Shown piece after piece: positions 2-16,420 of a stretch of 17,425 nucleotides of DNA; the stretch's first letter is position 1, and the number at the start of each line of letters is the position of its first letter. Made by a program: the position numbers and the translations under genes. The notes beneath the pieces are model-generated. The model made no database searches. It was given only the letters and a program-made list of their open reading frames with translations, and was not told where the DNA came from. The DNA is from Granulicella sp. (GTDB taxonomy: Bacteria > Acidobacteriota > Terriglobia > Terriglobales > Acidobacteriaceae): assembly GCA_027339965.1 (NCBI GenBank), contig DAHWNL010000074.1, forward strand, positions 1-17,425, in the 5' to 3' direction.

Positions 2-1984
2 GTGATGGCGGTGAAGATTGTGCCTGCGGCGCTGGGCGTGAGCGCTGCGCCGCTGCTGATCAGCGATGCCGCCTGGAAGGCGAGCATGCAGCTCACTCCT
101 GGGTGGCAAAATCCAGGGTTCAACGACAGCGGCTGGAGCGCAGCCGACAGCCTGGGCGGCGTGGAAAGCTCCTACGAGTTCTTCCAGTGGAACGCGGATG
201 CCGGGATGTACGCCTGGCCGGGCTATGACGGCATCTCGGCGTTCCTGGGTCACTATTCCTTGAATCCGGAGAGCTTGCAGGATGTCTCCAACGGCGCCGG
301 GCGGATCATGCACCCTGAGGCCCTGACGCTGGGCGGGCCGAACTTCCAGGTGGAGTTGCCCAAGGCGCGCTTGAGTAGCTTTGACGCGCCTTCGATGCTG
401 CTCGATTTCGGGCGCGAGGTGGCCGGACGCCTGGAGTTGGACTCCAGTTCCTCTGCGCCGATGGATGTGACGGTGCAGTACGGCGAGTCCGAGATGGAGG
501 CGCTGCACGATCCTTACCTGGGCGTTGACCCGGTCCACGTGGCTGCGCATGGCACAGCCTATGGCCCCAAGAGCGCCTTCCGTTATGCGCTGGTGCGCTT
601 TGTGGGCGGCAGGCAGATGAGCTTCAAGGCTATCCGGCTGGATGGCATCGCCTATCCGGTCACCTATCAGGGCTACTTTGACTCCTCAGACAAGCAGTTG
701 AACCTGATGTGGGCGATCGGCGCCTACACGGCGCATCTGTGCATGCAGGACGACATCTGGGATGCGCCCAAGCGTGACCGCGGCCGCTGGATGGGCGACC
801 TTGACGTCAGTGGGCGCACCATCGAGGACGCCTTCGGCGGCAACTTCCTGATGGATGACACGCTCGATCACCTGCTGGGAGCCAATCCCGTACACAGCGA
901 TGTCAATGGCATCCCCGGGTACTCCGCCTTCTGGCTGACCGGCGAGAAGGAGTATTTCCTGCACACCGGCTCGATGAAGCAGTTGCAGCAGACCCATGCG
1001 CGCATGGTGCAACTGCTGAACTACATGGAGCTGGAGATGAACCGCCGCAACCTGTTTGCGGACAAGAACCACGCGTGGACCTTTGTGGACTGGTCTCCGG
1101 AGATGAGCGGAGACACGCCGCTGACCCGGATGGCGACGCAGTTCGAGTTCTACGCCGCCTTCAAGGATGGAGCCTATCTGCTGCGGCAGTTGAAGGACGA
1201 GGCCAATGCGCAGAAGTTTGCCGCCGAAGCGCAGAAGCTGAAGGCAGCGTCGCGGCAGTATCTGCAGGACGCATCAGGATCCTATGGGAACCGGTGGCAG
1301 ACCAACGCCTATGCGGTGCTCTCCGGGGTGGCGGACCCGGCGCAGTATCCGGCCATCTGGAAGGACGCGCTCTCCAGCGTGGGACACATCCAGTACAACG
1401 CGTTTATCATTACGCCCTACTACAACTATTATGTGGTGAGCGCGATGGCGAAGATGGGACATCGGCAATCGGCGCTGAACTGGATACGGCAGTACTGGGG
1501 CGGGATGACGCAGGAGGGAGCGACGAGCTTCTGGGAGGGATATGACCCGGCGTGGTACAAGGGCGTTGACTTTCATGCCTCCCTGCAGGCCGACAACATG
1601 TCCGGCTTCCGGGTGAGCCTGGCGCACGGATGGTCCAGCGGGGTGACGCCGTGGCTGATGGAGCAGGTGATCGGCATCCAGGCCACCGGGCCGGGATTCT
1701 CCACGGTCAACATCCGTCCGGACCTGCTCGATCTCTCCTGGGCCAAGGGTGGAGAGCCGACGCCGCGCGGGATGCTGAAGGTGAGCATCCGCAAGCAGGA
1801 TGGCTATACCACGGAGGTGGATCTTCCCCCGGCGACCACGGCGACGGTCTCTGTGCCAGTGTCGTCTGCAACCTCCCAGGTGGAGGTGAACGGCAAGCCC
1901 ATGAGCGCCCGCTCCGCGGAGGGCGGAGCGAGGGCGGTGCTGGTGTTGAACGCCAGTGGGCAATACCTGATCCACAGCCGGTGA
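2..1984 (+). CDS. Alpha-L-rhamnosidase, glycoside hydrolase family 78 (5'-truncated by window edge)
   Basis: 660-aa ORF open from the window start. GH78 motifs: LLDFGREVAG, AFRYA, WDAPKRDRGRWMGD (acid region), FVDW, GATSFWE (base region), SLAHGWS, and C-terminal PTPRG beta-sandwich. Stop TGA at 1982-1984. Confidence 0.88.
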   Translation: MMAVKIVPAALGVSAAPLLISDAAWKASMQLTPGWQNPGFNDSGWSAADSLGGVESSYEFFQWNADAGMYAWPGYDGISAFLGHYSLNPESLQDVSNGAGRIMHPEALTLGGPNFQVELPKARLSSFDAPSMLLDFGREVAGRLELDSSSSAPMDVTVQYGESEMEALHDPYLGVDPVHVAAHGTAYGPKSAFRYALVRFVGGRQMSFKAIRLDGIAYPVTYQGYFDSSDKQLNLMWAIGAYTAHLCMQDDIWDAPKRDRGRWMGDLDVSGRTIEDAFGGNFLMDDTLDHLLGANPVHSDVNGIPGYSAFWLTGEKEYFLHTGSMKQLQQTHARMVQLLNYMELEMNRRNLFADKNHAWTFVDWSPEMSGDTPLTRMATQFEFYAAFKDGAYLLRQLKDEANAQKFAAEAQKLKAASRQYLQDASGSYGNRWQTNAYAVLSGVADPAQYPAIWKDALSSVGHIQYNAFIITPYYNYYVVSAMAKMGHRQSALNWIRQYWGGMTQEGATSFWEGYDPAWYKGVDFHASLQADNMSGFRVSLAHGWSSGVTPWLMEQVIGIQATGPGFSTVNIRPDLLDLSWAKGGEPTPRGMLKVSIRKQDGYTTEVDLPPATTATVSVPVSSATSQVEVNGKPMSARSAEGGARAVLVLNASGQYLIHSR

Positions 1985-3216: not shown

Positions 3217-3538
3217 AGGCTTGACCAGGAAGATTACCGTCACAGTCCAACGAATCTCGCCGAAGTGTGGCGATAGTCTCAGGTCACGGATCTGGCGTTG
3301 CCGGGAGGTAGGTATCCAAGCGCCAAGATTCTTGCGCCAATGTTATGTCTGGGTGGATTGTGGCTTGCCGAGGCCGAGGTGAGCCTTGGTCACTCCGTTC
3401 CTCGCTCACGCCGGGGCGCTTTTCCCAGGTTGGGGGCCGATTGTGGCCGTCGAGAGGTAGGCCGACGAAATGAACAATCCCGTCAAAGCTGATACTCCGT
3501 GGAGCCCGGATCTAGTGATTCGATTGCCGAGGCTGGCA

Positions 3539-3583
3539 TCCTGCGAACTCAAATCTCGAAGAGGCCGGGATGTGGGGCACCCG
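3539..3583 (+). repeat. REP-like 45-bp repeat, copy 1 (degenerate hairpin)
   Basis: tcctgcgaactcaaatctcgaagaggccgggatgtggggcacccg; 37/45 identical, ungapped and in the same orientation, to 5074-5118. Confidence 0.75.
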
Positions 3584-3661
3584 GCGCCCGCACCTGGGAT
3601 GGTCAGGAGAAGCGAGATCTGGGGTCGCGGGAGCAGAGCCGGACGGGTCGATGGTCCCGAC

Positions 3662-3691
3662 TTGGTGGCGTCTGGAGCGGATGGGTATACT
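3662..3691 (+). promoter_or_regulatory. Possible sigma70 promoter for the K+ channel gene
   Basis: TTGGTG (3662-3667), 18-nt spacer, TATACT (3686-3691), about 125 nt upstream of the ATG. The -10 is good and the -35 is weak. Confidence 0.3.
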
Positions 3692-3816
3692 GCCTTTGCC
3701 GAGATCCTCAGGTGCGTGTGTACGGCTCGATGCGCAACAAAGCTTATCGACATGCTGGTTCCGCCCTGGCCGTCGCAAAAGCTATGCCGAACCCTGCCGG
3801 GTAGCCGTGGGAGCGA

Positions 3817-5049
3817 ATGAAGTATCCAGAGATCATCAACTCGCGCATGGAACGCCTTCGCATCAAGCTCGAAGGCGTTTCCAAGCGATTGCGTGAACCG
3901 GTCTGGTTTCCCCACGTTCCTCTGGCCCTGATGCTGTGGCTGGCGGGCTTCTGGGTCTTGCAGGGAGACTGGGGCAACCACTGGTTTGCGGGGCTTCGCT
4001 CGCTGGCGAATGGAGATTTTTATTTCAATCTCCAGATGCACAAGCTGCCGTCCTTGTTCATCGGCAGCGGCATGCTCATCATGGGGTTCGCTCTGCTGTG
4101 GCGCTCCCGTCTGGCATGGATAGTGGCCTTGCTGCTGGCGGTGACGGCAACCACCAACACGGTGCTGGGCAGACACGCCCACGCGGGGCCTTTATCTACT
4201 TACTTCCTGCTGATCGTGGTTGCGCTGCTGGTTACTTGGCGGAGCTTTGACCGATCAAGCGTAGCGGCTAGCACGCTCTTCGCCGTCACCTCCGGCTTGA
4301 TGCTGCTGCTGTACGCTACCTTTGGCGCGTACTACCTTGGAGCGGGGTTCACGCCGCCGATCAACAATCTGGTGACCGCCCTCTACTACTCCATGGTCAC
4401 CATGAGCACGGTGGGGTATGGAGACATCGTCCCGAGAACCGATGAGGCGCGGCTGTTTACGGTCTCGGTGATCATTCTCGGCGTGGCCGTCTTTGCCACG
4501 TCACTCACGGCGGTGATTGCTCCTTTGGTGAGCCGAAGCCTGCTGCGTATCGTTAACCGGAGGAGTCCCCAGATGAAACGGCATCACCACTATGTTGTCG
4601 TGGGTAACACGTCGCTGGCTATCAATACCGCGCAAGAACTGGAAAAGCGCGGCCTGGTTGTGGTGCGCATCCTGAGGGAAGCGGTCGACGCGGCAGAGGC
4701 CAAGGGCTCGAAGGTCGTGCTGGGAGATCCCAGCACGGCGGAGACACTGCGTCAGGCGGACGCCGAGCAGGCCACTGCCGTATTGGCCATGCTGGACGAT
4801 GATGCGGAGAACGCGTTTGTGACGCTGGCCATGCGAGAGCTCGCTCCCGGCGTTCGCATCGTTGCCGCCGTGAATGACGCCCGTCAGTTGAACAAGGTCA
4901 AGCTTGCTCAGCCGGATGTGGTGATTGCCCCCCAGGTGCTGGGTGGGGAGCTCACGGCTATGCTGTTGGCCGGTGAGACGATCACCTCTGACTTTGTGAT
5001 GCAGCACGTCTTCCAGAATCTCAAAACGGGGACCTCGACCGGGGACTGA
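3817..5049 (+). CDS. kch: Kch-type potassium channel (6TM plus RCK/TrkA-N domain)
   Basis: 410 aa with several TM helices. Pore helix and filter ALYYSMVTMSTVGYGDIVP, followed by ARLFTVSVIILG. C-terminal RCK domain (HHYVVVG, GDPS...TLRQA, DDDAENAF, PDVVIAPQVLGGE). RBS GGAG at 3809-3812. Confidence 0.9.
   Translation: MKYPEIINSRMERLRIKLEGVSKRLREPVWFPHVPLALMLWLAGFWVLQGDWGNHWFAGLRSLANGDFYFNLQMHKLPSLFIGSGMLIMGFALLWRSRLAWIVALLLAVTATTNTVLGRHAHAGPLSTYFLLIVVALLVTWRSFDRSSVAASTLFAVTSGLMLLLYATFGAYYLGAGFTPPINNLVTALYYSMVTMSTVGYGDIVPRTDEARLFTVSVIILGVAVFATSLTAVIAPLVSRSLLRIVNRRSPQMKRHHHYVVVGNTSLAINTAQELEKRGLVVVRILREAVDAAEAKGSKVVLGDPSTAETLRQADAEQATAVLAMLDDDAENAFVTLAMRELAPGVRIVAAVNDARQLNKVKLAQPDVVIAPQVLGGELTAMLLAGETITSDFVMQHVFQNLKTGTSTGD
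4559..4575 (+). promoter_or_regulatory. Internal RBS plus in-frame ATG (Met253), likely start of a free RCK subunit
   Basis: GGAGGAG (4559-4565), 7 nt, ATG (4573-4575), in frame and immediately before the RCK domain. Confidence 0.65.
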
Positions 5050-5073
5050 TGCAGCTTTGTGTCTGGATGAGCG

Positions 5074-5118
5074 TCCTGCGAACCCACATCTCTGAAAAAC
5101 CGAGATGTGGGGCACCCG
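5074..5118 (+). repeat. REP-like 45-bp repeat, copy 2 (intact hairpin) between convergent genes
   Basis: Stem cccacatctc (5083-5092) / gagatgtggg (5102-5111), 9-nt loop, then gcacccg. Lies between the convergent stops at 5049 and 5148. Confidence 0.8.
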
Positions 5119-5147
5119 CGTCGTCCTGCCAAAGAGCTTCCGGTGCG

Positions 5148-8100
5148 CTACTCGTAGAGCAGGTAGAGGCCGCGGGCGGCGAGGTATGTATTGAGCGCGG
5201 GCTGCCAGGATTTTGCGATGAGGCGGGGATCTTCGCCGCGCTCGATGGCGTCCAGCGTGGCTCGGCTGCCCAGCAGCCGCAAGGTCTTTGCAAGCTGGAA
5301 CTGCTGCGGGTAGAGGCGGTGCAGGATGCTCAGGATCTCTACGCCCATCTCCGGGGAGTCCAGGGCGCGGCGGTCTGTGAGGGTCATCCGTACTGCCGGG
5401 ATCGTCTGGCCGCGAAAGGGATAGCGATTGGCGGAGTCGGTGACCGTCGCGGTGGTGGCCGTGAAGGTGACGCCCGGGATCTGTCGCCGGTTCAATGCCC
5501 GCGCGACCTCCGCAGCGTTCATCCAAGAGGCTCCGAAGAGGGAAAAGGAGGAATCCGTGCCGCGTCCGGCTGAGACGCCCGTGAAGTCCAGAAGGCCAAG
5601 ACCTGGGTAGAGTGTGGCCGCTGTCACTGAAGGCAGGTTGGGGCTGGGGTTGACCCAGGGCAGGCCGGTCTGGTCAAAGTACTCGTCACGCGACCAGTGC
5701 TGCAGCGGGACGACCGTGAGGTCGGAGTCGAGGTGCTTGACGCCAACGATGTACTCGGCCAGCTCTCCCAGCGTCATGCCGTTGCGAACCGGCAGCGGCA
5801 TGAAGTCGATGTAGTCTCCCGGCCCGGTGGTGAAGGCGGCGTCCGAGATCGGTCCCTGCACCTGAGAGCCGTCGATGAGGGCCGGGCGGTCAAGCACGAT
5901 GATCTTCAGGTCATGGTGATACTCGTTCTGCTCCTGCGCGGCGGCTTCAAGGAAGTATCCGGTGACCGTCTCATAGGTGTAGAAGCGCACGCCGACGTCC
6001 TGAAGGTCAATCACGACGGCGTCGAGGTTCTTCAACTGCTCGTGGGAGGGCCGTTTGTCCGCCTCCGTGGGGCCGTAGAGGCTGGTGACAGGCAGGCCGG
6101 TGATGGGTTCGACCTCGGCGCGCAGGTGGGTGGTGTCCTGCTTGCCGAAGATGCCGTGCTCGGGAGAGAAGACGGTCGCCAGCTTCGCTCCCGGAACCGT
6201 TCGGGGCAAATCGTTGGCCAGGATGGCGATGGTCGAGCGGCGGTTGCTGTCGATGCCGGTTTGATTAGTGAGCACGCCTAGCACCGGGGGATGGCCAATC
6301 TCCGTGGCCAGGGTGACGAAGGGAGCGAAGTGCTGCTGCTCGACAATGTCGATTCCGATGAGGGTGCGGCCTGTGGCCGCAGCCTGCGCTGCTGCGCTGG
6401 ACGCGGACGCGCAGAAGAGGTTGGGGTCGCCGCACTCGGTCGGAGCGGTGGAGTCAGGCGGGTGATAGAGTCCCAGAGCCTCTGCCGCGGCGGTGGCTAC
6501 CTGACCGCGCAGGTTGGAGATGGGAGGGTTGCCGCGGGGATGAATCGCGTTGGCCAGCAGAACGATGTAGGTGTCTGAGCCGGGATCGATCCACAGCGTG
6601 GTGCCGGTGTAGCCGGTATGGCCGAAGCTGCCGACGGGGAAGACCACGCCGCGCGGCTTGGAGAAGCTGCTGTCAATGTCCCAGCCATAGCCGCGCAGGT
6701 CCTGATGTTTGACGGAGGGATAGTGCGGTGCCAGGCCGGGCGCGGCGGGGGCTTCGCCGGCGGCGATGGCCGCGCGCTGGGCCTGATTGGCCTCCGCGAG
6801 CTGGTCCGACGTATGGCCGGGCTGCTCCGGCGTGACCATCAGTTCCAGCGTGGAGCGCTTGAGGGGAAAGCGGCTGGGCCGGCCGGCGAGGCGATCCAGC
6901 AGCGCCTGGGCGAAGAGGGCGACGTCCTGGGCGGTGGAGAAGACGCCGGCGTGGCCGGCGACGCCGCCCATGCGGCGGGTGGAGGGATCATCCACCGAGC
7001 CCCACAGCATCCGGTTGTAGTCCGGGTTGTTCTGCGCGTTGCCCTCGTCATCGTGGGCGGTGGGCGCAATCTTCTGAAGCAGAGAGACGTTCCAGTCTCC
7101 GGGCTTGCAGGGGTGGGAGGGGCTGGAGCCGGGAGCGAGTCCGATGGCCGCTCCATAGACCTGGTACGCTCCGCAGGCGCGGGCCAGGGGGAGATAGCTG
7201 GTGTGGGTCATGCCCAGAGGCGTGAAGATGTGCTGCTGGGCGTAGACCTCCAGCGGCTCCCCGCTGAGGCGTTGCACCATGTACCCGAGCAGGATGAAGT
7301 TGATGTCCGAGTAGCGAAAGACGGCTCCGGGAGCGGAGACCAGCGGCGTGGTAAAGGCCCGGCGGAGGCCTGCGGCGAAGTCGGGTTTGGCCAGCCCCCA
7401 GGGGGATCTCATGGTGATGTCGCCGGGCTCACCGGAGGTGTGGGTGAGGAGCATGCGGATGGTGACCTGGGCGCGAACGGGATCGTGCTGAGCGTTGAAC
7501 TCGGGAAGGTACTTCTCTACCGGATCGTCAAAGCGCAGCTTGCCCTGCTCGTAGAGCTGCATGATGGCGGTTGCGGTGCTGAGGCACTTGCTGAGCGACG
7601 CCATGTCGAAGACGGTGTCCATGGTCATGGGCAGAGCGGGGGAAGGCCGTCCGTCCAGCCCGGGCTCGCCAGCCAGCTTGCGGTCTCCGTAGGCGTGCTC
7701 AAAGACCACTTGCCCGTTGTGCCCGATGAGCAGCGCGACTCCCGGCGGCTGGTGCGTAACGACGGCATCAAGGATCAGACGGGAGACGAGGCTGAAGTCC
7801 GGAACGTGGGAGTGGGTAGCTGCGTTGGCGGATAGCGATTGCGCGTGGCCGGCGCGCGCGCTGAGCAGAGGCAGGGAGAGCAATGTGGCTGTGAGCGCGA
7901 TCAAGCCGACGGCGGAGCTGGAGACGGAGTGGACCGTCTTCCGGCGGGAGGGTGAGCTGCCCGAGAGCAGGCTGACCAGCGCCCCGACGAAGAAGGTGGC
8001 GGCTGCGCCGATGAGGACATACCAGGTCCAGGCGATGGGCGGTAGGGTGATGGGACCGAGGTGCATGGGGAAGACTCCTTGCCAAAGCCAGAGGTTGAGG

Positions 8101-9494
8101 AGAAGGCCGAAGATCATGCCTGTGATCGCGCCGTTCTGCGTGGCGAACCGGGTGAGCGTTCCGAGCAGAAAGACGCCGAGCAGAGAGCCATAGGCAACGG
8201 AAGCGATCGAGAGGCCGATCACGACCACGTGGCCCTTGCCGCCGACCAGAGATGCGTAGGACGCGATGGCGTAGAGCACCAGCGCCCAGAGGACGGTGGA
8301 GGATTTGCTGACCAGAGCGCGCTCCCGGTCATCGGCCTCTGGCCGCAGAGGCGCGTAGAAGTCCACGACGGTGGTTGAGGAGAGGCTGTTCAAGGCGGCG
8401 GAGAGATTGGACATGGCCGCGGCGAGGATGGCCGCGACAAGCAGGCCGGCGATGCCGGGGGGCATCTCCCGGACGATGAAGGTGGGGAAGATCCGGTCGG
8501 CGCTGGAGAACACCGCCGGGTGTTGCGCGTAGAAGACGTAGAGCCCCGCGCCGATGAGCAGGAAGAGAGCGAACTGCACGAAGATCACCACCCCGGAGCT
8601 GAGCAGAGCGAGCTGGGATTCGCGCAGCTTGCGCGCGGCCAGCATGCGCTGCACCATCAACTGATCAGTGCCGTGCGAGGCCATGGTGAGGAAGGCTCCG
8701 CCGAGGAGACCAGCCCAGAAGGTGTAGGCGGTGGTGAGGTTGAAGGTGAAGTTGAACATGTGAAAGCGGCCGGCGGCGGAGGCTACGGCGTGGATGGCGC
8801 TCCAGCCGCCGTGGACGTGGGAGCCGAGTGTGAGCAGCGCGACCAGCGTGCCGCCGAAGTAGATGGCCATCTGCACAACGTCGGTCCAGATGACGGCGGC
8901 CATGCCGCCCTCGAACGTGTAGAGCAGGGTCAGGGCGGAGATGATGCCGATGGAGAGCAGGTCGCGGGTTCCGATGGCGATGCCGACAACGATGGAGACG
9001 GCGAAGACGCGCACGCCCTCAGCAGCCGCTCGCATGACGAGGAACAGGCCGGCGGTAACCTTGTAGAGGGATGGTCCAAAGCGCTGATCGATGAGCTGAT
9101 AGGCGGTGAGCATCCGGCCGGCGAAGTAGCGGGGCAGAAAGAGAATGGCGACCACGATGCGGCCGATCATGTAGCCGATGACGACCTGGAGGAAACTGAA
9201 GTTCCCGGAGAAGGCGACACCGGGGATGGAGATGATGGTGAGCGTGGAGGTCTCCGCGGAGACGATGGAGAGCGAGATGGCCCACCAGGGGACGGTGTTG
9301 TTGGCCAGAAAGTAGCTGCGCAGCGAGCGGTCCGCGGGGGTGCCCGAGCCGGAGAGCTTGCGGAAGCGCAGACCAAAGAGGGTGATTCCCACCAGGTAAA
9401 CGGCGATCAGAGCGAGGTCAAAGGCTCGCAGGCGATGCGGGCCGGAAGGTTGCAGAAGGGTTGCTGCCAGGGATGAGACGTGGATGCCGGGCAA
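5148..9494 (-). CDS. Triple fusion: sodium:solute symporter (SSS) + beta-lactamase-fold serine hydrolase (AmiE-like) + DUF1343/NamZ-like exo-beta-N-acetylmuramidase
   Basis: TTG start at 9494 with AGGAG RBS 6 nt upstream (9501-9505). aa ~24-510 SSS: YFLA, SIVSAETSTLT, GGMAAVIWTDVVQ, HGTDQLMVQR, AAAMSNLSAALNSLSS. aa ~565-1010 serine hydrolase: FDMASLSK (SxxK), LLTHTSG, FRYSDINF, GVAGHAGVFS, FGHTGYTGT. aa ~1040-1448 DUF1343: TNQTG, FSPEHG, SLYG, DLQDVGVRFYTY, LDRP, PSPNLP, YPG, GRGT. One uninterrupted frame. Confidence 0.88.
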   Translation of the reverse strand: MPGIHVSSLAATLLQPSGPHRLRAFDLALIAVYLVGITLFGLRFRKLSGSGTPADRSLRSYFLANNTVPWWAISLSIVSAETSTLTIISIPGVAFSGNFSFLQVVIGYMIGRIVVAILFLPRYFAGRMLTAYQLIDQRFGPSLYKVTAGLFLVMRAAAEGVRVFAVSIVVGIAIGTRDLLSIGIISALTLLYTFEGGMAAVIWTDVVQMAIYFGGTLVALLTLGSHVHGGWSAIHAVASAAGRFHMFNFTFNLTTAYTFWAGLLGGAFLTMASHGTDQLMVQRMLAARKLRESQLALLSSGVVIFVQFALFLLIGAGLYVFYAQHPAVFSSADRIFPTFIVREMPPGIAGLLVAAILAAAMSNLSAALNSLSSTTVVDFYAPLRPEADDRERALVSKSSTVLWALVLYAIASYASLVGGKGHVVVIGLSIASVAYGSLLGVFLLGTLTRFATQNGAITGMIFGLLLNLWLWQGVFPMHLGPITLPPIAWTWYVLIGAAATFFVGALVSLLSGSSPSRRKTVHSVSSSAVGLIALTATLLSLPLLSARAGHAQSLSANAATHSHVPDFSLVSRLILDAVVTHQPPGVALLIGHNGQVVFEHAYGDRKLAGEPGLDGRPSPALPMTMDTVFDMASLSKCLSTATAIMQLYEQGKLRFDDPVEKYLPEFNAQHDPVRAQVTIRMLLTHTSGEPGDITMRSPWGLAKPDFAAGLRRAFTTPLVSAPGAVFRYSDINFILLGYMVQRLSGEPLEVYAQQHIFTPLGMTHTSYLPLARACGAYQVYGAAIGLAPGSSPSHPCKPGDWNVSLLQKIAPTAHDDEGNAQNNPDYNRMLWGSVDDPSTRRMGGVAGHAGVFSTAQDVALFAQALLDRLAGRPSRFPLKRSTLELMVTPEQPGHTSDQLAEANQAQRAAIAAGEAPAAPGLAPHYPSVKHQDLRGYGWDIDSSFSKPRGVVFPVGSFGHTGYTGTTLWIDPGSDTYIVLLANAIHPRGNPPISNLRGQVATAAAEALGLYHPPDSTAPTECGDPNLFCASASSAAAQAAATGRTLIGIDIVEQQHFAPFVTLATEIGHPPVLGVLTNQTGIDSNRRSTIAILANDLPRTVPGAKLATVFSPEHGIFGKQDTTHLRAEVEPITGLPVTSLYGPTEADKRPSHEQLKNLDAVVIDLQDVGVRFYTYETVTGYFLEAAAQEQNEYHHDLKIIVLDRPALIDGSQVQGPISDAAFTTGPGDYIDFMPLPVRNGMTLGELAEYIVGVKHLDSDLTVVPLQHWSRDEYFDQTGLPWVNPSPNLPSVTAATLYPGLGLLDFTGVSAGRGTDSSFSLFGASWMNAAEVARALNRRQIPGVTFTATTATVTDSANRYPFRGQTIPAVRMTLTDRRALDSPEMGVEILSILHRLYPQQFQLAKTLRLLGSRATLDAIERGEDPRLIAKSWQPALNTYLAARGLYLLYE

Positions 9495-9506
9495 GGGGAT
9501 CTCCTG

Positions 9507-11804
9507 CTAGTGGGTTGGCGCGGAGCCTGGCGGGGCCGGGATCTGGGCCGGGATCTGGGCTGGAGTTGGGGATGGAGTTGGACCGGGGGATGGGGATGGG
9601 GTTGGGGACTGCGTTGGAGCGGGCTGCGGCTGCGGGGGTGGTGGAATGCCAAGGTCGGCGGCTGGAGGCAACGTTTTGGAATGACTCCACTGGCGCTGGG
9701 CGCTGCGTACCTTGTCGACGCGGGCATACCACTCTCCGATGGTGTAGTCGTAGTGTTCGAGTACGGGCCGAAGTCCATCCGGCTGGTAGGTTTTGTTCCA
9801 CTGTTCGGCGTACATGTCGCGCAGCCGGGAGTAGGTGGCGATGAGGTCCTGGAGGCGGCCGTTTACGCCGTTGATATCAGAGAGCAGAGCGGGGACGGAG
9901 GGTCTGGGCCGGGGAGCGTTCGGGTTGGTCTGCAAGGTTTGCATCTCAGCCTGCGCCTGGGCATACTCGGTGGCCATCTCATCGGCGAGCTGGAACTTGA
10001 GGCCCAGAAAGTCGATTCTGCGCGCGCCGAACTCCATCGCCGAGATCGCATCCGGCTGGCGCAGGTTCGGTTCCTGTGCCTTGGCCTGCGCGATGAGGGT
10101 CAGCGCGTGCTCCGCGTAAAGCCGCAGGGCGGAGTTGATGGGCCGCATGCGCGCGGCGACCACCTGCCCATCGCCGGACCAGGGATCGAGCCAGAACAAG
10201 CCGTCGGAGCCCTCCGTGGCGGCGATCACTTTGTTGTCATGCAGCAGCGTCATGGCGTTGGTCAGCTCATCCTTTGCCTGGTTCAGCAGCCCCAGCGGAT
10301 CTCCGAAGAAGACCTGGGCAAAGCTGTCCTGAAAGGCGGAGATGGAGGATGTGCCGCGCTGCCAGGCGGCGGCTGCGCCAAAGAGGATCCCATACCAGTT
10401 CATGTTGGCCAGCGATTCCCCGTCGTCGTTCCAAAGGGTGTTGAGCTGTCCTGTGGCGCCGTAGCGCTGGCCGTCGCGGGTGAACTGCTGGATATCTTCA
10501 AGCGCCAACTGCTGGTTGGGCCAGACCTGGCGGTAGTTGTTGATGGCGGGCGCGACCCAGACGGGAATTCCGGCCTGGGTGTAGGGGCGGAGGATGCGCA
10601 GGAATCCGTGAGGGTTGGGAGAGTATCCCCAGGCGACGGCGATGAGCTGATGCTTGATCTGCGCAGGGAGAGCCTTCAATAACTGGGGATCGCTCTGGGC
10701 GATGTCTCCCCAGAAGAGAATCCTGCGATGCAGCGGCTCCAGGCTGGTGACGATCTGCTTGAGGTAATCGATGTAGACGGCGCCCAGGCCTTGCGCGTCC
10801 ACCTGAGCGCGGGTGCGTCCGATGCCCAGGTCATAGGTCTCGTCGCCGCCGATATGCAGGAAGGGGCCGGGGTAGAGCAGGGCAAGCTCCTGGAAGATCT
10901 GGTCGATCAGCGGAATGGATCCAGGTTGGCCGGGGGCGAGGACGGCCCCATGGGGCGTCTCGGCGACATTGGCGTAGGTCTCCCAGAGGAGCAGGTTGTT
11001 GAGGTGGCCGATGGCCTCCTGCTCGGGGATCACCGTGATGTGGTACTTCTGCGCGTAGGCCACCAGTTGGCGAGCATCGGCGGCGGAGATGCTGCCCTGC
11101 GGCGGCGCGGGAAGGGGGTTGGAGGCATACTGCTGGGCGTCTTCAAAGTAGGGCGAATAGACGTTGATTTTGTAGGCGGCCAGGGTGCGGATCAACTTCA
11201 TCTGAAAGGCCAGGGTATCCACCGGGCCACGGGAGAGATCATCGTGCAGGCCACGGTAGCGCATCGCAGGCCAGTCGCGGATCTCCGCGGCGTGCAGCAC
11301 CATGCCGGAGGGCAGGCGCTCGAACATCTGCTTGGCGGTTTGCGCCGCATAGAACAGGCCGGCGCTGCTGGCTCCGGTCAAGGTCAGCGTGCGGTGCGCG
11401 TAGCGGATCGTGTAGCCTTCCGCGCGCATCTCCGCAGTGAAGCTGGAGTCCGGGTAGTGGGAGAGCCGATGCAGGACGATACGCAGTCCGCGGCCTGTCG
11501 GGACGCCGCGGTCTTGAAGGGTCTGGCTCAGGTCGTCGGCGGTGAACGCGTCCGGGGAGGAACAGGCGGGACAGAGGACTGTGACTGAGCCGACCGGTAT
11601 CGCCTGGACGTTGGCCACCTGCCGCGGCATCGGGATCAGGCGCAGGGCGAGCTGGGCAGCGGCCAGGGGCGGCGCTGAGGCCGCCGATAAAAGCGCTGCG
11701 GGCACCCATAAAAGCACCGCGGGCACCCAGAGCAGCGCCGCGCGGAGTGCGGCTGTGGCTGAACCAAGAGAGGAACCAAGAGATGGCATAAAGTTACGGT
11801 ACAT
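9507..11804 (-). CDS. Secreted beta-N-acetylhexosaminidase, glycoside hydrolase family 20, with Pro-rich C-terminal tail
   Basis: GH20b/GH20 motifs LIPMPR, EGYTI, GLFYAAQT, IRDWPAMRYRGLHDDLSRG, catalytic HIGGDE. Signal-peptide-like N-terminus after ATG 11804 (alternative ATG 11789). The track's extension to 12959 is treated as a shadow frame. Stop is 12 nt from the next gene's start. Confidence 0.88.
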   Translation of the reverse strand: MYRNFMPSLGSSLGSATAALRAALLWVPAVLLWVPAALLSAASAPPLAAAQLALRLIPMPRQVANVQAIPVGSVTVLCPACSSPDAFTADDLSQTLQDRGVPTGRGLRIVLHRLSHYPDSSFTAEMRAEGYTIRYAHRTLTLTGASSAGLFYAAQTAKQMFERLPSGMVLHAAEIRDWPAMRYRGLHDDLSRGPVDTLAFQMKLIRTLAAYKINVYSPYFEDAQQYASNPLPAPPQGSISAADARQLVAYAQKYHITVIPEQEAIGHLNNLLLWETYANVAETPHGAVLAPGQPGSIPLIDQIFQELALLYPGPFLHIGGDETYDLGIGRTRAQVDAQGLGAVYIDYLKQIVTSLEPLHRRILFWGDIAQSDPQLLKALPAQIKHQLIAVAWGYSPNPHGFLRILRPYTQAGIPVWVAPAINNYRQVWPNQQLALEDIQQFTRDGQRYGATGQLNTLWNDDGESLANMNWYGILFGAAAAWQRGTSSISAFQDSFAQVFFGDPLGLLNQAKDELTNAMTLLHDNKVIAATEGSDGLFWLDPWSGDGQVVAARMRPINSALRLYAEHALTLIAQAKAQEPNLRQPDAISAMEFGARRIDFLGLKFQLADEMATEYAQAQAEMQTLQTNPNAPRPRPSVPALLSDINGVNGRLQDLIATYSRLRDMYAEQWNKTYQPDGLRPVLEHYDYTIGEWYARVDKVRSAQRQWSHSKTLPPAADLGIPPPPQPQPAPTQSPTPSPSPGPTPSPTPAQIPAQIPAPPGSAPTH
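9510..9645 (-). repeat. Low-complexity Pro/Ser/Thr/Gln repeat tail (PPPQPQPAPTQSPTPSPSPGPTPSPTPAQIPAQIPAPP)
   Basis: 12-bp tandem unit gggccgggatct twice (9532-9555) and ggggat/ggagtt-type hexamer repeats on the + strand. Confidence 0.8.
11687..11784 (-). repeat. In-frame tandem microduplications in the GH20 signal region
   Basis: 21-bp units ataaaagcgctgcgggcaccc (11687-11707) and ataaaagcaccgcgggcaccc (11708-11728) plus a partial third, encoding repeated A[A/V]LLWVP. 12-bp units gaaccaagagag/gaaccaagagat (11761-11784) encoding SLGS twice. Confidence 0.8.
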
Positions 11805-11990
11805 CACCGCGCCGGATGGCAGAATGGCTTGGAGGCCGGTGGCGCAGCCCGGTGCCCCGCCGCTCCAGAAGCGCAGGACGAAGGATCGCGCCAAGGTCCG
11901 TGCGCCGCAGGCTTCGGGAAGGGTTTGTGGATCGGGTGTGAATCTGGGATAGACTCCAGGCAGAGAAATTGGAGGGGAGGGTTCCGAACC

Positions 11991-12857
11991 ATGCGCAAGG
12001 GACGGGATGACGAGGATGGCCAAGCGGTTTTGACGATCGATGCTCATCACCATCTTTGGCGGTACCGTGCGCCTGAGTACGGCTGGATTAGTGATGCGAT
12101 GGCTTCGCTGCGGCGGGATTTTCTCCCTGCCGAGTTGGAGCAGGAACTCAGAGCTGCAGGGGTCCAGGGAACAGTTGCCGTGCAGGCCAGGGAGACCGTG
12201 GAAGAGACGAACTGGCTGTTGGAGTGTGCGCGCTCTTTGCCGGCGATACGGGGGGTGGTGGGGTGGGCGCCGCTGGCGTCTGACAATCTTGCCGCGGTGC
12301 TGGACGGCTGGAGCGAGGAGCGGCGGCTGGTGGGTCTTCGGGAGATTGCTCAAGGCAAGCCGGCCGGATTTCTGGACGATGAGCTGTTCAACCGTGGCGT
12401 GCGGCAGCTCGCGGAGCGAAACCTGACCTACGATGTGCTGATCTTTCAGAACCAGTTGCCGGAAGCCATCCGGTTTGTGGATGCGCATCCCCGGCAGCGA
12501 TTTGTGCTGGACCACGCGGCCAAGCCACGCATCGCCGCTGCTGAGCTGGAGCCATGGAGAACCCATATGCACGAGCTGGCCCGGCGCGTGAACGTTGTCT
12601 GCAAGGTCTCCGGCATGGTGACGGAGGCTGACTGGGAGCGCTGGACGCCGGAGGCTCTGCGCCCCTATCTGGATGTCTGCGTGGAAGCCTTCGGACCGAG
12701 GCGTCTGATGGTTGGATCCGACTGGCCGGTGTGCCTGGTGGCGGCGAACTACTCCCGTTGGTGGGAGGTGCTGCGGCAGTACTTTGCCGCGTTTGGCGCG
12801 GAGGAGAAGCGGAGGATCTTTGGCGGCAATGCCGTGGAGTTCTACGCGCTGCCATGA
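11991..12857 (+). CDS. Amidohydrolase family (Amidohydro_2/COG3618), probable L-fucono/L-rhamnono-lactonase
   Basis: IDAHHHLW, RRDFLP, TVAVQA, ETNWLL, GVVGW, VLDHAAKP, CKVSGMVTEADW, FGPRRLMVGSDWPVC, IFGGNA. ATG 11991 follows GGAGGGGAGG (11971-11980); TTG 12030 is an alternative start. Confidence 0.85.
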   Translation: MRKGRDDEDGQAVLTIDAHHHLWRYRAPEYGWISDAMASLRRDFLPAELEQELRAAGVQGTVAVQARETVEETNWLLECARSLPAIRGVVGWAPLASDNLAAVLDGWSEERRLVGLREIAQGKPAGFLDDELFNRGVRQLAERNLTYDVLIFQNQLPEAIRFVDAHPRQRFVLDHAAKPRIAAAELEPWRTHMHELARRVNVVCKVSGMVTEADWERWTPEALRPYLDVCVEAFGPRRLMVGSDWPVCLVAANYSRWWEVLRQYFAAFGAEEKRRIFGGNAVEFYALP

Positions 12858-12910
12858 ATCAGATTTGGTTCGGATATCCACCGAATTTATGAAATCCACA
12901 TGGAAAAGCC

Positions 12911-12939
12911 TTGATAGAAGCAGGAGCGCGAAGGATACT
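12911..12939 (+). promoter_or_regulatory. Probable sigma70 promoter for the MerR-TPR gene
   Basis: TTGATA (12911-12916), 17-nt spacer, GATACT (12934-12939), in a comparatively AT-rich intergenic stretch about 50 nt upstream of the ATG. Confidence 0.45.
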
Positions 12940-12991
12940 CGCCGTAGGGCATGCCACAACCCGTGGTAGCTATTGACGCCGAGTACTTGAG

Positions 12992-13909
12992 ATGAGCGCC
13001 GTGAGCCAATACTGCCGGAAAGATGTACTGCGTATTCTCAGAGTTCCTGCTCGCAAGCTGGCTACCTGGGAGAGGGCAGGGCTGATCGCCTCCACGGAGA
13101 TTTACTCCTTTGATGAACTGGTGCAACTGAGAAAGCTGCGCGATCTGGCCGCAACGCGGATCTCCGTGCGCAGTATTCGCCAGTCCGTGGATGCCATGCA
13201 GAAGGTCTCGGGCATGAGGAACCCGCTGCTGGAGTCGGTAGCGGTGCTGCATGGCTCCCGGGTGGCATTTCGGCAGTGGGGCGCTCTGGTGGATCCCATG
13301 ACCCGCCAGATGGCTTTCGATTTTGAACTGGCGCCGCGCAGCGGTCTGGCCGTGGTGCGCAGGAACACCGCAGAGCAGGGCGTGCCCGGCTCCGATCTGC
13401 AGGAGATGTTTCTGCGCGCGGTCCGTCTGGAGGAGATCCCAGGCCGGATGGACGAGGCGAAGAACGTCTATGAGACGATCCTGGAGATCCAGCCGGATCA
13501 CGCCGCGTCGGCCATCAACCTGGGGACCATCCTCTACAACGAGCGGGAGTTTGCCGAAGCGGAGCGGAGGTATCGCCAGGCGGTGCAGGCGGATCCCGAG
13601 TATGCCCTGGCGCACTTTGACCTGGGCAATGCGCTGGATGAGCAGCAGCGCATGGCCGAGGCGATCCAGGCCTATCAACAGGCTCTGGCCCTGGTGCCCC
13701 AGTATGCGGATGCGCACTACAACCTGGCGCTGGCCTATGAGCGCATCCAGGAGCCGCGCAAGGCGCTGAAGCACTGGATGACCTACTCGCGGCTGGATCC
13801 GGCGGGGCCATGGTCCAGCCATGCGCGCAGCCAGGCGCGAAGGATTCTGGGCGATGAGCGCCTGACGATCGTGGCGCGTCATGGGCGCACGATGCGAATC
13901 GCCGGATAG
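12992..13909 (+). CDS. Tetratricopeptide-repeat protein with N-terminal MerR-type helix-turn-helix
   Basis: N-terminus YCRKDVLRILRVPARKLATWERAGLI...YSFDELVQLR fits a MerR wHTH pattern. About four TPRs (AAINLGTILY, AHFDLGNALDE, AHYNLALAYE). Confidence 0.8.
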   Translation: MSAVSQYCRKDVLRILRVPARKLATWERAGLIASTEIYSFDELVQLRKLRDLAATRISVRSIRQSVDAMQKVSGMRNPLLESVAVLHGSRVAFRQWGALVDPMTRQMAFDFELAPRSGLAVVRRNTAEQGVPGSDLQEMFLRAVRLEEIPGRMDEAKNVYETILEIQPDHAASAINLGTILYNEREFAEAERRYRQAVQADPEYALAHFDLGNALDEQQRMAEAIQAYQQALALVPQYADAHYNLALAYERIQEPRKALKHWMTYSRLDPAGPWSSHARSQARRILGDERLTIVARHGRTMRIAG

Positions 13910-14167: not shown

Positions 14168-16420
14168 ATGCCGGAAACTACCACCTTTCGCCCGTTTGTT
14201 CCAGCCAGTGAAGATCGACGGGAGCTGTCGCTGCGGGCGCTGTTACTGGGCTCGATCTTTGGCGTGATCTTCGGAGCTGTCACCGTCTATGTGGGGCTGC
14301 GGGCCGGTCTTACCGTGGCCGCCAGCATCCCGATCTCCGTGCTGTCGATCTCCATCCTCAGGGCCTTTGGCCGCGCCTCGATTCTGGAGAACAACATCGT
14401 GCAGACGACCGGCAACGCCGGTCAGTCGATCGCCTCCGGGGTGATCTTTACCCTGCCGGCGCTGATCTTTCTGGGGTTCGACCTGGAGAGCTCGAGGATC
14501 TTTGCGCTGGCCCTGTTCGGTGGCTGGCTGGGCGTGCTGTTTATGATACCGCTGCGGCGGCAGTTGATCGTGGAGGAGCACGGAGCGCTCACCTATCCGG
14601 AGGGGACGGCCTGCGCGGATGTGCTGCAAGCTGGGGAGCGCGGCGGCTCGTTTGCCGGCCGGGTATTTCTGGGGCTGGGCTTGGGTGGTCTGTACACGCT
14701 GCTGCAGAACGAGAATCTGCTGCGGCTGTTTCCAGCCACGCCGAACTGGTCGCCGGACTTTGATCCGCAGGGGGCGCAGATTCTGAAGGGGGCGGCGATC
14801 CGCGCCGATGTGACGCCGGAGTATCTCGGCGTGGGGTACATCATCGGGGCGCGGGTGGCGGCGGTGATGCTGGCCGGAGGGGTGTTCAGTTGGCTGGTGC
14901 TGATGCCGGCCATCATGTTCTTCGGCAAGCACCTGGCGACGCCGCTGTATCCCGGAGTGACGCCGATTGCGCAGATGAGCCCGAGCGACCTGTGGGCCAC
15001 CTATGTGCGGCCGATGGGCGCGGGCGCGGTGGCGGCCAGCGGGTTGATTACCCTGCTGCGGACGATGCCGACGATCGTGAGCGCGCTGACCGCGGGGTTC
15101 GTGAAGATGGGGTTCGGCAAGGGCGCGGAGAGAGGCAAGCTGCTGCGCACGGAGATTGATATTCCCATGACGGTGGTGGTGGGTGGCAGTCTGGTGCTGA
15201 TTCTGCTGATGTTCCTGTTTCTGGAACTGAAGCCGATTCCAGGCGCGCAGGTAGGTTGGCTGGCCAACCTCGCGGCCTCGCTGCTGGTGGTGGGCTTCGG
15301 TTTCCTGTTTGTCACCGTCTCCTCGCGGATTGTGGGCATCATGGGATCCAGCGCTAACCCGGTGAGCGGCATGACGATCGCTACGCTGATGGCGGTGGCG
15401 GCGATCTTCCTGGTCAAGGGATGGACCGCGCCCGCCTTTGGCGCCCTGGCCATCACCGTGGGAGGCATGGTGTGCATCGCCTCGGCCAACGCCGGGGATA
15501 CCAGCCAGGATCTCAAGACCGGGTTCCTGATTGGGGCGACGCCCTGGAAGCAACAAGTGGCGGTGATGGTAGGGGTGATCGTGTCGGTGTTCTCCATTGG
15601 AGCGACGCTGAACGCCATGAACAAGGGCCTGGAGAGCTTCAAGGAACTCCCGGCGGCGAGGGCCATCTCGCTGGCTTCCCTGCCCGAGGGAGTGACCAAT
15701 CAGGGGGCGTTCCAGCGGAACCGGGTGACGGTGCTGTTCCCTTCGCACGCGGGAGGCGCAACTCGGAAGGATCTGACCGGCGCCAATCGTTATGTGGTGC
15801 TGAACTCCATCGGGTCGTCCACCCTGGAGGATGGAAAGTATCTGTACAATCCGGCGACAGGAAAGATTGAAGTGCAGTGGATAGAGGGTATCGGCAGCGA
15901 GAAGGCGGCCGCGCCGCAGGGCCGGCTGATGGCCACCGTGATCAACGGGATCCTCAGCCGCCGGTTGCCCTGGAGCCTGGTTCTGCTGGGCGTAGCGCTG
16001 GTGCTCGGCATCGAACTCCTGGGAGTGCGTTCGCTGACCTTTGCCGTGGGAGCGTACCTGTCCATTGGGACCACGCTGGCGATCTTCTGTGGCGGCGTGG
16101 TGCGCTGGATGGTGGATCGAGCTGCGGCCCGCAGCGGTGAGATGGCCGGCTCCGGGGCGGAGACCGAAATCTCTTCGGGCAGTCTCTACGCCTCTGGACT
16201 GATTGCGGCCGGCGGCATCATGGGACTGCTGGGAGTGTGCTTGAACCTGTATGAGGCGGCTACGGGCAAGACGGCACCGCAGTTTCCCGTCAGCAATCCG
16301 TTCTACAAGGATTGGGTGAGTATGGTCAGCTTCCTGGCGCTGGCCTTCAGTTTGTATCATTTTGCTAGAACGCCTCTGGATTCAGAGAAGATGATGGACG
16401 AGATTGAAAGCGAGGAATAG
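14168..16420 (+). CDS. OPT-family oligopeptide transporter
   Basis: RBS AGGAG 14154-14158. Motifs ELSLRALLLG, YVGLRAGLTVAASIP, ENNIVQT, YPEGTACA, SANPVSGMTIATL, GDTSQDLKTGFLIGATPWKQQ, AAPQGRLMA, ASGLIAAG; many TM helices. Confidence 0.93.
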   Translation: MPETTTFRPFVPASEDRRELSLRALLLGSIFGVIFGAVTVYVGLRAGLTVAASIPISVLSISILRAFGRASILENNIVQTTGNAGQSIASGVIFTLPALIFLGFDLESSRIFALALFGGWLGVLFMIPLRRQLIVEEHGALTYPEGTACADVLQAGERGGSFAGRVFLGLGLGGLYTLLQNENLLRLFPATPNWSPDFDPQGAQILKGAAIRADVTPEYLGVGYIIGARVAAVMLAGGVFSWLVLMPAIMFFGKHLATPLYPGVTPIAQMSPSDLWATYVRPMGAGAVAASGLITLLRTMPTIVSALTAGFVKMGFGKGAERGKLLRTEIDIPMTVVVGGSLVLILLMFLFLELKPIPGAQVGWLANLAASLLVVGFGFLFVTVSSRIVGIMGSSANPVSGMTIATLMAVAAIFLVKGWTAPAFGALAITVGGMVCIASANAGDTSQDLKTGFLIGATPWKQQVAVMVGVIVSVFSIGATLNAMNKGLESFKELPAARAISLASLPEGVTNQGAFQRNRVTVLFPSHAGGATRKDLTGANRYVVLNSIGSSTLEDGKYLYNPATGKIEVQWIEGIGSEKAAAPQGRLMATVINGILSRRLPWSLVLLGVALVLGIELLGVRSLTFAVGAYLSIGTTLAIFCGGVVRWMVDRAAARSGEMAGSGAETEISSGSLYASGLIAAGGIMGLLGVCLNLYEAATGKTAPQFPVSNPFYKDWVSMVSFLALAFSLYHFARTPLDSEKMMDEIESEE

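Follow-up and report, generated by a model that had tools for sequence, protein, structure and literature searches.

A permease, a serine hydrolase-like domain, and a NamZ domain in one acidobacterial reading frame, joined through a putative internal signal peptide

In a stretch of 17,425 nucleotides from Granulicella sp. (contig DAHWNL010000074.1 of assembly GCA_027339965.1; the whole stretch is referred to here as the window), one gene encodes a complete permease of the “sodium/solute symporter” (SSS) family followed, in the same reading frame, by a beta-lactamase-fold serine hydrolase domain and a NamZ (DUF1343) domain. The gene is genuine and comes from a Granulicella-like bacterium of the Acidobacteriaceae. 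Judged by its homology, the segment that links the permease to the enzymes, and that might be taken for a tether, derives from the signal peptide of a once separate enzyme gene. The interpretation favored here, at a probability of roughly 0.55, is that the product is a polyprotein from which signal peptidase I releases the enzyme part into the periplasm, free of the permease. The presumed substrate of the system is N-acetylmuramic acid (MurNAc). All parts of the fusion belong to known kinds; what is new is the signal-peptide origin of the joint, the series of stop codons found at it in relatives, and the repeated origin of the fusion. No publication on a permease-hydrolase-NamZ fusion was found in the open-access literature searched (supplements not covered), and the remark in a preliminary description of this DNA that no characterized SSS-hydrolase-hydrolase fusion was known agrees with that outcome.

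The gene occupies positions 5148–9494 on the minus strand as a single stop-free open reading frame (ORF) of 1448 codons plus the stop, beginning with TTG. A ribosome-binding-like AGGAG, read directly from the sequence at 9501–9505 (minus strand), lies 6 nucleotides upstream of that start, and the TAG stop (9507–9509) of an upstream gene of glycoside hydrolase family 20 (GH20) lies 12 nucleotides upstream of it. Pfam assigns residues 61–463 of the fused protein to SSF (profile positions 1–406 of 406, 129.9 bits against a cut-off of 22.8), residues 576–986 to Beta-lactamase (207.4 bits, 4.1e-61), residues 1073–1290 to NamZ_N (212 bits), and residues 1295–1447 to NamZ_C (122.3 bits), all four far above their cut-offs; with the NCBIfam model TIGR00813 (sss), the score is 209.2 bits and the cut-off 184. 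The ORF, its translation, and these profiles thus bear out the preliminary claim of one 1448-codon frame holding an SSS permease, a serine hydrolase, and a DUF1343 domain.

The same architecture recurs in other genomes. Of 8000 candidates scored in a protein search, 1750 were at E <= 0.001, and the best 120 of these, which were inspected, all keep the full length and all carry the four Pfam families, at 62–100% identity and 1299–1540 amino acids. Where public names are given for these 120, they are “sodium/solute symporter” or “SSS family transporter” of Acidobacteriaceae, annotations that hide two enzymes. Full-length copies in a single frame are present in Granulicella sp. S156, Tunturiibacter empetritectus M8UP27, T. 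psychrotolerans X4BP1, Edaphobacter aggregans DSM 19364, Edaphobacter sp. HDX4, Terriglobus sp. ADX1, and the strains KBS 89, KBS 146, and dw_441, and isolates with closed chromosomes, for example Tunturiibacter strains, carry the fusion. In a scan limited to one genome per species, 77 related loci were kept, most of them fused. The genome from which the window comes (3.82 Mb in 88 contigs, 98.9% complete) has one NamZ gene, the fused one.

It is accordingly highly improbable that the single frame is the product of a sequencing or assembly error, be it a stop codon erased or a frameshift introduced where two genes meet. Some relatives do have a stop exactly at the joint, but the best 120 relatives are all fused, as are 84 of 111 loci classified by frame and stops, closed-chromosome isolates included. 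Sequence support was taken from assembled contigs of other runs rather than from raw reads, and no RNA run is among those listed as containing the stretch. Contigs of run X6, from a study other than that of the best holder, cover 29 of the 30 bins of positions 5100–9600 with no insertions or deletions, and one of them bridges the permease-enzyme joint from 7711 to 8189 with zero differences. The preliminary description had singled out two segments as places where the reading frame might fail. The joint itself (7800–8000) is fully spanned by that contig, and the linker at 6370–6470 is only partly covered in the rows shown, by one X6 piece (6220–6439) and one X10 piece (6453–7337). The pattern it had associated with an error, separate genes in the close relatives together with an indel or lost stop at the junction, is not what these relatives display.

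The joint (residues 517–551; 7842–7946, minus strand) has the layout of a bacterial signal peptide, as seen both in the alignment and in comparison with stand-alone homologues. An n-region, R517-R518-K519, is followed by a hydrophobic core from about A528 to A546 and then by A546-R-A548 and G549-H-A551 before Q552; most of the eight stand-alone beta-lactamase-NamZ proteins inspected likewise begin with a signal-peptide-like stretch, usually with Ala before Gln. An alignment of 119 fused proteins was scanned for such features with a purpose-written, rule-based script, not with SignalP. The sequence of hydrophobic core, small-x-Ala/Ser, and then Gln/Glu is present in 116 of the 119, compared with 7% of shuffled segments, and a looser scan in which a basic residue before the core was also required matches 118. 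The longest uncharged run at the joint has a median length of 15 residues (range 11–24; 12 residues in 31 of the 119), and the predicted cut falls a median of 11 residues ahead of the hydrolase domain. Fusions that arose separately (L116, L117, and L118) have the same clean signal-peptide features.

Relatives in which the two genes are still distinct make the origin of this segment plain. A 300-residue query spanning the joint matched 354 of 401 sampled genomes of the family (5 unpublished genomes included). Among the 150 matches listed, with 520 more beyond, at least 15 genomes have one unbroken match over the joint, at least 4 further genomes have both halves in one long open frame, and at least 7 have a match broken by in-frame stops. 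In those seven (L109–L115), the stop of the SSS gene is followed in the same frame, within about 0–12 codons, by Met and the signal peptide of the enzyme, and in one of them Met-Arg-Ala comes directly after the stop, ahead of the hydrophobic core. What separates the fused from the unfused form is therefore the loss of one stop codon. Since the joint is homologous to a signal peptide, retains its c-region, and has a short uncharged run, the product may be cut there.

The permease core (residues 20–512; 7959–9437, minus strand) is supported by Pfam, NCBIfam, structure prediction, and structural comparison. An AlphaFold2 (AF2) model of residues 1–600, built from a 22-row alignment, has a mean predicted local distance difference test (pLDDT) score of 82.5 and contains 13 confident transmembrane (TM) helices, mostly above 90 within the helices, among them the pair of broken helices that characterizes the LeuT fold; beyond these 13, a helix at residues 529–548 is predicted with pLDDT below 50 and is not confidently packed. 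Together with a second model, of residues 551–1448, this yields a 13-helix permease and two well folded enzyme domains, the modeling foreseen in the preliminary description. Foldseek places the permease closest to SMCT1 and SiaT (TM-scores of 0.86 and 0.84, normalized to the target; 7sl9 and 5nva), and the nearest solved structures, by fold and also by sequence, are SMCT1, SiaT, and the iodide symporter NIS, all SSS carriers of anions or carboxylates. SiaT has 13 TM helices with a periplasmic N terminus and a cytoplasmic C terminus (PMC5931594). A similar orientation is consistent with the distribution of Lys plus Arg on alternate connecting segments of the window's permease: 18 in the segments predicted to face inward, 9 in those facing outward.

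Residues of SiaT were mapped through a HMMER alignment to 5NV9, read against the residue list available in PMC5931594. Ser60 and Thr63, which bind the carboxylate, correspond to S83 and T86, and Phe78 and Gly81, which line the acetamido pocket, to F101 and G107; all four are invariant. Two further residues that bind N-acetylneuraminic acid (Neu5Ac) are replaced, Thr58 by E81 and Gln82 by Y108. At the Na2 site Ala339 and Ser342 are kept as A359 and S362 with Ser343 replaced by N363, and at the Na3 site Asp182 and Ser345 are kept as D205 and S365 with Ser346 replaced by A366. This pattern fits, and falls short of proving, a carrier of a sugar acid that is presumably sodium-coupled. Because an orthologous SSS gene sits with murK-like, murQ-like, nagZ, and namZ genes across the Acidobacteriota, the permease is most likely an inner-membrane importer of free MurNAc, the same job as that of Tannerella MurT, and the SSS family has a described precedent as MurNAc carrier in this MurT (PMC5790795). 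A complex prediction between the permease core (residues 20–512) and the NamZ part (residues 1042–1448) scored 0.00 and gives no verdict.

The hydrolase domain (residues 576–986; 6537–7769, minus strand) carries the SxxK, YSD, and HTG motifs that the preliminary description had reported. These are S633-L-S-K636 (7587–7598), Y728-S-D730 (7305–7313), and H959-T-G961 (6612–6620), all on the minus strand and all conserved in the alignment of the 119 fused relatives. The best family match of the domain is PBP4B (YfeW; NCBIfam NF002968), at 143.7 bits against an equivalog cut-off of 385, so that by profile score it is a relative of PBP4B rather than an equivalog; it is 29% identical to Escherichia coli YfeW over 426 columns (E 3e-43), and in the E. 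coli K-12 record yfeW lies directly after murQ and murP. Foldseek finds its nearest folds among EstG, EH7, family VIII esterases, the R61 DD-peptidase, and AmpC. Two inserts have no counterpart in YfeW. One of them (7107–7175, minus strand) has C774 and C796 at its ends; these are retained by 100% and 98% of the 119 rows, respectively, and may form a disulfide. Of the paired cysteines pointed out in the preliminary description, this pair thus holds up. The other, C1021 and C1028, kept in 15% and 3% of rows, lies in a gap-rich and variable interdomain linker (residues 1001–1072; 6279–6494, minus strand; delimited from the alignment and the AF2 model) and was discarded as a meaningful pair. By analogy, the beta-lactamase-fold domain probably removes the stem peptide from MurNAc, acting as an amidase.

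The NamZ part consists of an N-terminal, catalytic domain (residues 1073–1290; 5625–6278, minus strand; Pfam, alignment, and model) and a C-terminal domain (residues 1295–1447; 5154–5612, minus strand; Pfam and alignment). In the AF2 model of residues 551–1448 (mean pLDDT 78.9, pTM 0.52), the two enzyme domains are well folded and the inserts and interdomain linker are poorly defined. The NamZ part superimposes on the DUF1343 structures BF0371 (4k05) and BF0379 (4jja) with TM-scores, normalized to the target, of 0.89 and 0.86. E1112 (6159–6161), in an invariant FxPEHG motif (FSPEHG in the window), lies just past the second beta-strand of the model, and R1311 (5562–5564) is invariant as well. 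In Bacillus subtilis NamZ, Glu92 stands at the tip of beta-strand 2 and Arg279 belongs to the C-terminal domain (PMC8054146); E1112 and R1311 appear to match these two residues, an equivalence by position and not by alignment. Characterized NamZ enzymes are exo-muramidases (PMC8054146; bioRxiv 2021.12.02.470905, as far as their available texts describe them), and the family is described as mainly one of Bacteroidetes in PMC8054146, whose available text contains neither “symporter” nor “Acidobacteria.”

The genes that accompany the two halves in other genomes are informative about the role of the system. In a sample of 401 Acidobacteriota genomes (3 unpublished genomes included), 343 match some part of the fused protein, and outside a few genera the permease and enzyme halves are separate genes. 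Thirteen loci were taken from this sample and their ORFs were searched with Pfam. Two of them (L018 and L025) have, in order, a SIS protein, a BcrAD_BadFG kinase, the SSS gene, a beta-lactamase-NamZ gene, and a large outer-membrane barrel; a third (L026) has a LysR regulator, the kinase, a MurQ-type SIS protein, a “haloacid dehalogenase” (HAD) hydrolase, the SSS gene, a glycoside hydrolase family 3 (GH3) gene, and then beta-lactamase-NamZ; L023 and L024 have the same set, with NagA and TonB; and L021 has SSS, GH3, an unknown gene, and beta-lactamase-NamZ. The combination is familiar from Tannerella murT-murK-murQ and from the B. subtilis operon murQRP-amiE-nagZ-namZ. The SSS orthologue is thus linked to a BcrAD/BadFG kinase and a MurQ-type etherase at L018, L023, L024, L025, and L026. 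The HAD gene of L026 (4437–5141, plus strand, genome G271) lies between the MurQ-type and SSS genes. Pseudomonas has a HAD-type MurNAc-6-phosphate phosphatase, MupP, so that the gene of L026 might belong to an anabolic branch.

Among the 77 related loci, a GH20 homologue lies within 6 kb in 50 (upstream and on the same strand in 49), NagA in 32, and a BcrAD_BadFG kinase in 35. GH20 seems to take over from the GH3 enzyme NagZ in the fused genera. In the window, the GH20 gene (9507–11804, minus strand; Pfam GH20 and GH20b), a beta-N-acetylhexosaminidase gene with a probable ATG at 11804, is likely in the same operon as the fused gene, and its product begins with a hydrophobic, signal-like stretch with AAA before Q. 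Its tail (9507–9650, minus strand), right before the fused gene, consists of about 45 residues rich in Pro, Thr, Ser, and Gln with short repeats. Other contigs of the window's genome encode a BcrAD_BadFG kinase, NagA, and two MurQ proteins, the latter at 369.6 and 340 bits against an NCBIfam cut-off of 302; one of the two shares 50% identity with E. coli MurQ. On one such contig, NagA, a SIS-domain protein, and a BcrAD_BadFG kinase are found within 7 kb (G000:C79:5531–12200), which may be the cytoplasmic half of the pathway. Because unfused relatives pair the SSS gene with murK-like, murQ-like, nagZ or GH20, and nagA genes and with a secreted beta-lactamase-NamZ, a role in MurNAc salvage with periplasmic enzymes is the reading adopted here; the peptidoglycan salvage that the preliminary description had proposed fits this neighborhood.

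The 111 classified loci, which include a few duplicates of one genome under two identifiers, comprise 84 fused loci, 10 with one or more in-frame stops at the joint or with intervening DNA in the same frame, 12 with separate genes, 2 with the enzyme gene on the opposite strand, and 3 with one half only. An unrooted FastTree of the permease part, computed on 103 rows (81 fused and 22 unfused) after rows with fewer than about 430 aligned residues were left out, requires at least 6 changes of state, compared with a mean of 20.3 in shuffles. Fused forms occupy three places in this tree: a single genome from a different family (L017), a small clade beside in-frame-stop forms (L116, L098, L099, and L101), and the large clade of Granulicella, Edaphobacter, Tunturiibacter, and Terriglobus to which the window belongs. 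Because all of the more distant families but one are unfused, the unfused state is taken as ancestral, and on this tree the fusion needs to have arisen at least three separate times. Fused and unfused forms also alternate among close relatives. The large fused clade also contains unfused members, Terriglobus albidus and its kin, whose permease and enzyme genes are kept apart by an additional gene encoding a small secreted protein. Two further changes of state rest on single loci from metagenome-assembled genomes (MAGs), L047 and L076, and may be frame errors or misclassifications.

Several individual loci depart from the common pattern. The extra gene in the T. albidus group, seen at about 3520–4230 (minus strand) of L120 and in L107 (T. 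albidus DSM 26559), is an ORF of about 270 amino acids with its own signal peptide; it splits what sister Terriglobus genomes carry as a fusion. A fused homologue in genome G199 (L014:5486–10891, minus strand; the same record as L088) reaches 1802 amino acids through large insertions; its SSF match ends at profile position 326, and its hydrolase and NamZ_N domains are much stretched. Acidobacterial-type loci were also met in MAGs labeled Janthinobacterium lividum, Novosphingobium, Lichenicola, Sphingomonas, and Verrucomicrobia (L085, L092, L096, L095, L051, L056, and L105). All but L051 nest within Terriglobus or Granulicella clades, and the Sphingomonas-labeled L051, which consists of a 79%-identical permease part only, lies outside the tree; these are probably mis-binned contigs or wrong labels. 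An occurrence outside the Acidobacteriota was rejected, as the Janthinobacterium-, Novosphingobium-, Lichenicola-, and Verrucomicrobia-labeled loci nest in acidobacterial clades. When the junction was searched against 1.84 billion cluster representatives, whose entries carry no taxa, about 10 of the best 150 spanned it, and this small number fits a narrow distribution.

A number of observations weigh against the interpretation favored here, some of them bearing on cleavage and others on the substrate. With respect to cleavage, the hydrophobic stretch of the window's own protein (A528–A546) is about 19 residues long, enough to anchor a chain in the membrane; the fusion of another family (L017, f34) has no clean cleavage motif after the core; retention of the motif in the remainder could be due partly to descent rather than selection; and the case for processing is drawn from motif conservation. 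The alternative is a permanent tether. In that arrangement, the joint would be an uncleaved signal-anchor forming a 14th TM helix, and the enzymes, held at the periplasmic face of the permease, would hand MurNAc over to it. The short distance between the predicted cut and the hydrolase domain would suit such an arrangement, and the persistence of the fused form in the large Granulicella/Edaphobacter/Tunturiibacter/Terriglobus clade, along with its repeated origin, would fit an advantage of linkage. Yet a c-region of the signal-peptidase type is kept in nearly all of the fused proteins, the uncharged run is at its median short for an anchor, the helix modeled at the joint has low pLDDT and is not packed with confidence, and the alternation of fused and unfused forms among close relatives is what would be expected if the mature products were identical. 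A tether is for these reasons given less credence than cleavage, and the preliminary claim that the enzymes are tethered to the importer is not established. That the internal signal stays uncut at least in long-core forms like that of the window, which would make a single 155-kDa, one-chain digest-and-import device, is held with similarly tentative standing. If it did, amidase-like enzyme and exo-muramidase would both sit above the entrance of the permease that holds them, and the natural fused and unfused pairs, one stop codon apart, would show what the tether contributes.

With respect to the substrate, none of the 77 related loci has a MurQ-type or a GH3 homologue of the query within 6 kb, and in the window itself murK and murQ are not adjacent to the fused gene. 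In the permease, Arg135 of SiaT, which forms the salt bridge to the carboxylate, is replaced by A158, with R155 and R162 of the same helix invariant, and Ser343 of the Na2 site is replaced by N363. The distance of the hydrolase domain from the PBP4B cut-off, together with the esterases among its nearest folds, means that it may be an esterase or a peptidase, and PMC5790795, in its available text, calls MurT an SSS member in the introduction and a member of the major facilitator superfamily in the discussion. The system might then act on another acidic or N-acetylated sugar polymer, fungal or exopolysaccharide for example, with the hydrolase serving as an esterase and the SSS part importing something other than MurNAc; GH20 and NagA, the partners of the fused loci, also serve the use of chitin-type N-acetylglucosamine (GlcNAc), and a rhamnosidase-like gene lies nearby in the window. 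Such a substrate is nevertheless improbable, more so than a tether, given that the NamZ enzymes characterized so far are exo-muramidases, that MurQ-type etherase and MurK-type kinase genes flank the SSS orthologue in unfused relatives, and that two MurQ genes are kept in the genome. Peptidoglycan-derived MurNAc thus stays the preferred substrate.

A consistent sequence of steps can be proposed on this basis. Residues 20–512 would form a 13-TM SSS permease with its N terminus outside and its C terminus inside, and residues 517–551, the retained Sec signal peptide of the former next gene, would route everything downstream of it to the periplasm; the periplasmic location claimed for the enzymes in the preliminary description is thus also predicted here, from a SiaT-like core that ends inside and a secretion signal that follows it. 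Signal peptidase I would cut after this internal signal, between G549-H-A551 and Q552 or between A546-R-A548 and G549, leaving two mature products, the permease and a bifunctional enzyme that is soluble in the periplasm, in a one-to-one ratio and synthesized at one place. Peptidoglycan fragments would be dismantled from the nonreducing end, with the periplasmic GH20 enzyme of the putative operon removing GlcNAc first, the beta-lactamase-fold domain then stripping the stem peptide from MurNAc, and NamZ releasing the terminal MurNAc for import by the SSS part and for processing in the cytoplasm by a MurK-like kinase, MurQ, and NagA encoded elsewhere in the genome. The fusion itself arose when the stop codon that separated two abutting genes of the same frame was lost, which happened more than once. 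If the product is cleaved, fused and unfused forms end up with equal mature products, which would account for the easy alternation between the two states.

Acidobacteria are abundant soil bacteria, and cell-wall recycling in them is absent from the literature found; the genes described here provide a concrete candidate for an acidobacterial MurNAc route, composed of a periplasmic GH20, an amidase-like domain, NamZ, an SSS importer, a MurK-like kinase, MurQ, and NagA. A beta-lactamase-fold domain has been joined repeatedly to NamZ, and in other proteins to NagZ, which suggests that removal of the peptide is the task of this fold. Moreover, the fused and unfused gene pairs, which have a signal peptide in common and differ in a single stop codon, constitute a natural series on how Sec and signal peptidase handle a signal behind a 13-TM domain, and one from which it can be asked whether fusion buys stoichiometry, co-localization, or nothing.

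Of the other genes of the window, an OPT oligopeptide transporter gene (14168–16420, plus strand) was considered as a component of the system and rejected, being within 6 kb in only 1 of the 77 related loci; it is overlapped on the opposite strand by a 705-amino acid ORF (14243–16360) without a Pfam match, probably a spurious frame of high-GC DNA. A Kch-like potassium channel (3817–5049, plus strand; NF007828, 413.7 bits, just under the cut-off of 425), a rhamnosidase-like six-hairpin glycosidase cut by the start of the window (2–1984, plus strand), and a TPR protein that weakly matches MerR (12992–13909, plus strand) are none of them conserved beside the fusion. A scan of 4900–13100 for promoters and terminators gave one promoter-like and four terminator-like sites, a yield not above that of shuffled sequences.

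Among known systems, one parallel to the joint lies outside cell-wall metabolism. FbcH of Bradyrhizobium japonicum is a cytochrome b-c1 polyprotein that is cut at an internal signal peptide into two products. Like the fused protein, it places a polytopic membrane protein ahead of an in-frame signal peptide and a periplasmic protein; its function is unrelated, and its processing is reported from experiment whereas that of the window's protein is predicted. The E. coli cluster murQ-murP-yfeW resembles the present system in that a beta-lactamase-fold protein, PBP4B, is part of a MurNAc catabolic operon, and differs in that YfeW is unfused, whereas the domain of the window scores below the PBP4B equivalog cut-off and has two inserts. 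A peptidoglycan exo-glycosidase fused to a beta-lactamase-fold domain is already known in RmNag3 of Rhodothermus marinus (PMC6987092), a NagZ of family GH3 whose chain begins with a signal peptide and ends with a beta-lactamase domain; there the glycosidase belongs to GH3 and not GH171, the order of the domains is reversed, and no transporter is included. The RmNag3 architecture also occurs in genome G014, in a 991-amino acid GH3 (NagZ-type) plus beta-lactamase protein (L022:12707–15679, plus strand) whose gene adjoins a MurQ-type gene and lies opposite a beta-lactamase-NamZ gene. For the permease, SiaT of Proteus mirabilis (PDB 5NV9/5NVA; PMC5931594) provides the LeuT fold of 13 TM helices, the N-out/C-in orientation, and a carboxylate sugar as substrate, at 25% identity in the structural alignment and without appended domains.

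Tannerella forsythia and B. subtilis offer close functional counterparts. In the available texts on Tannerella, murT-murK-murQ and the periplasmic NamZ1 and NamZ2 (PMC5790795, PMC7670621, bioRxiv 2021.12.02.470905) combine a MurNAc importer outside the phosphotransferase system (PTS), a kinase, and an etherase with NamZ enzymes that bear signal peptides with Ala-Gln cleavage sites. [quoted passage not shown] In Tannerella each of these genes stands alone, and bioRxiv 2021.12.02.470905 still describes the periplasmic amidase as unidentified. The B. subtilis recycling operon murQ-murR-murP-amiE-nagZ-namZ (PMC5061867, PMC8054146), as described in the available texts, has secreted exo-enzymes that remove GlcNAc, then the peptide, and then MurNAc, followed by a MurNAc importer and MurQ, and a gene for a beta-lactamase-fold hydrolase adjoins namZ; the likeness of AmiE to the hydrolase domain of the window is a functional comparison and not one of sequence. 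Its genes are separate, with the PTS importer MurP and a GH3 glucosaminidase, whereas the window has an SSS importer and a GH20 partner, and encodes hydrolase and NamZ as one chain fused to the importer.

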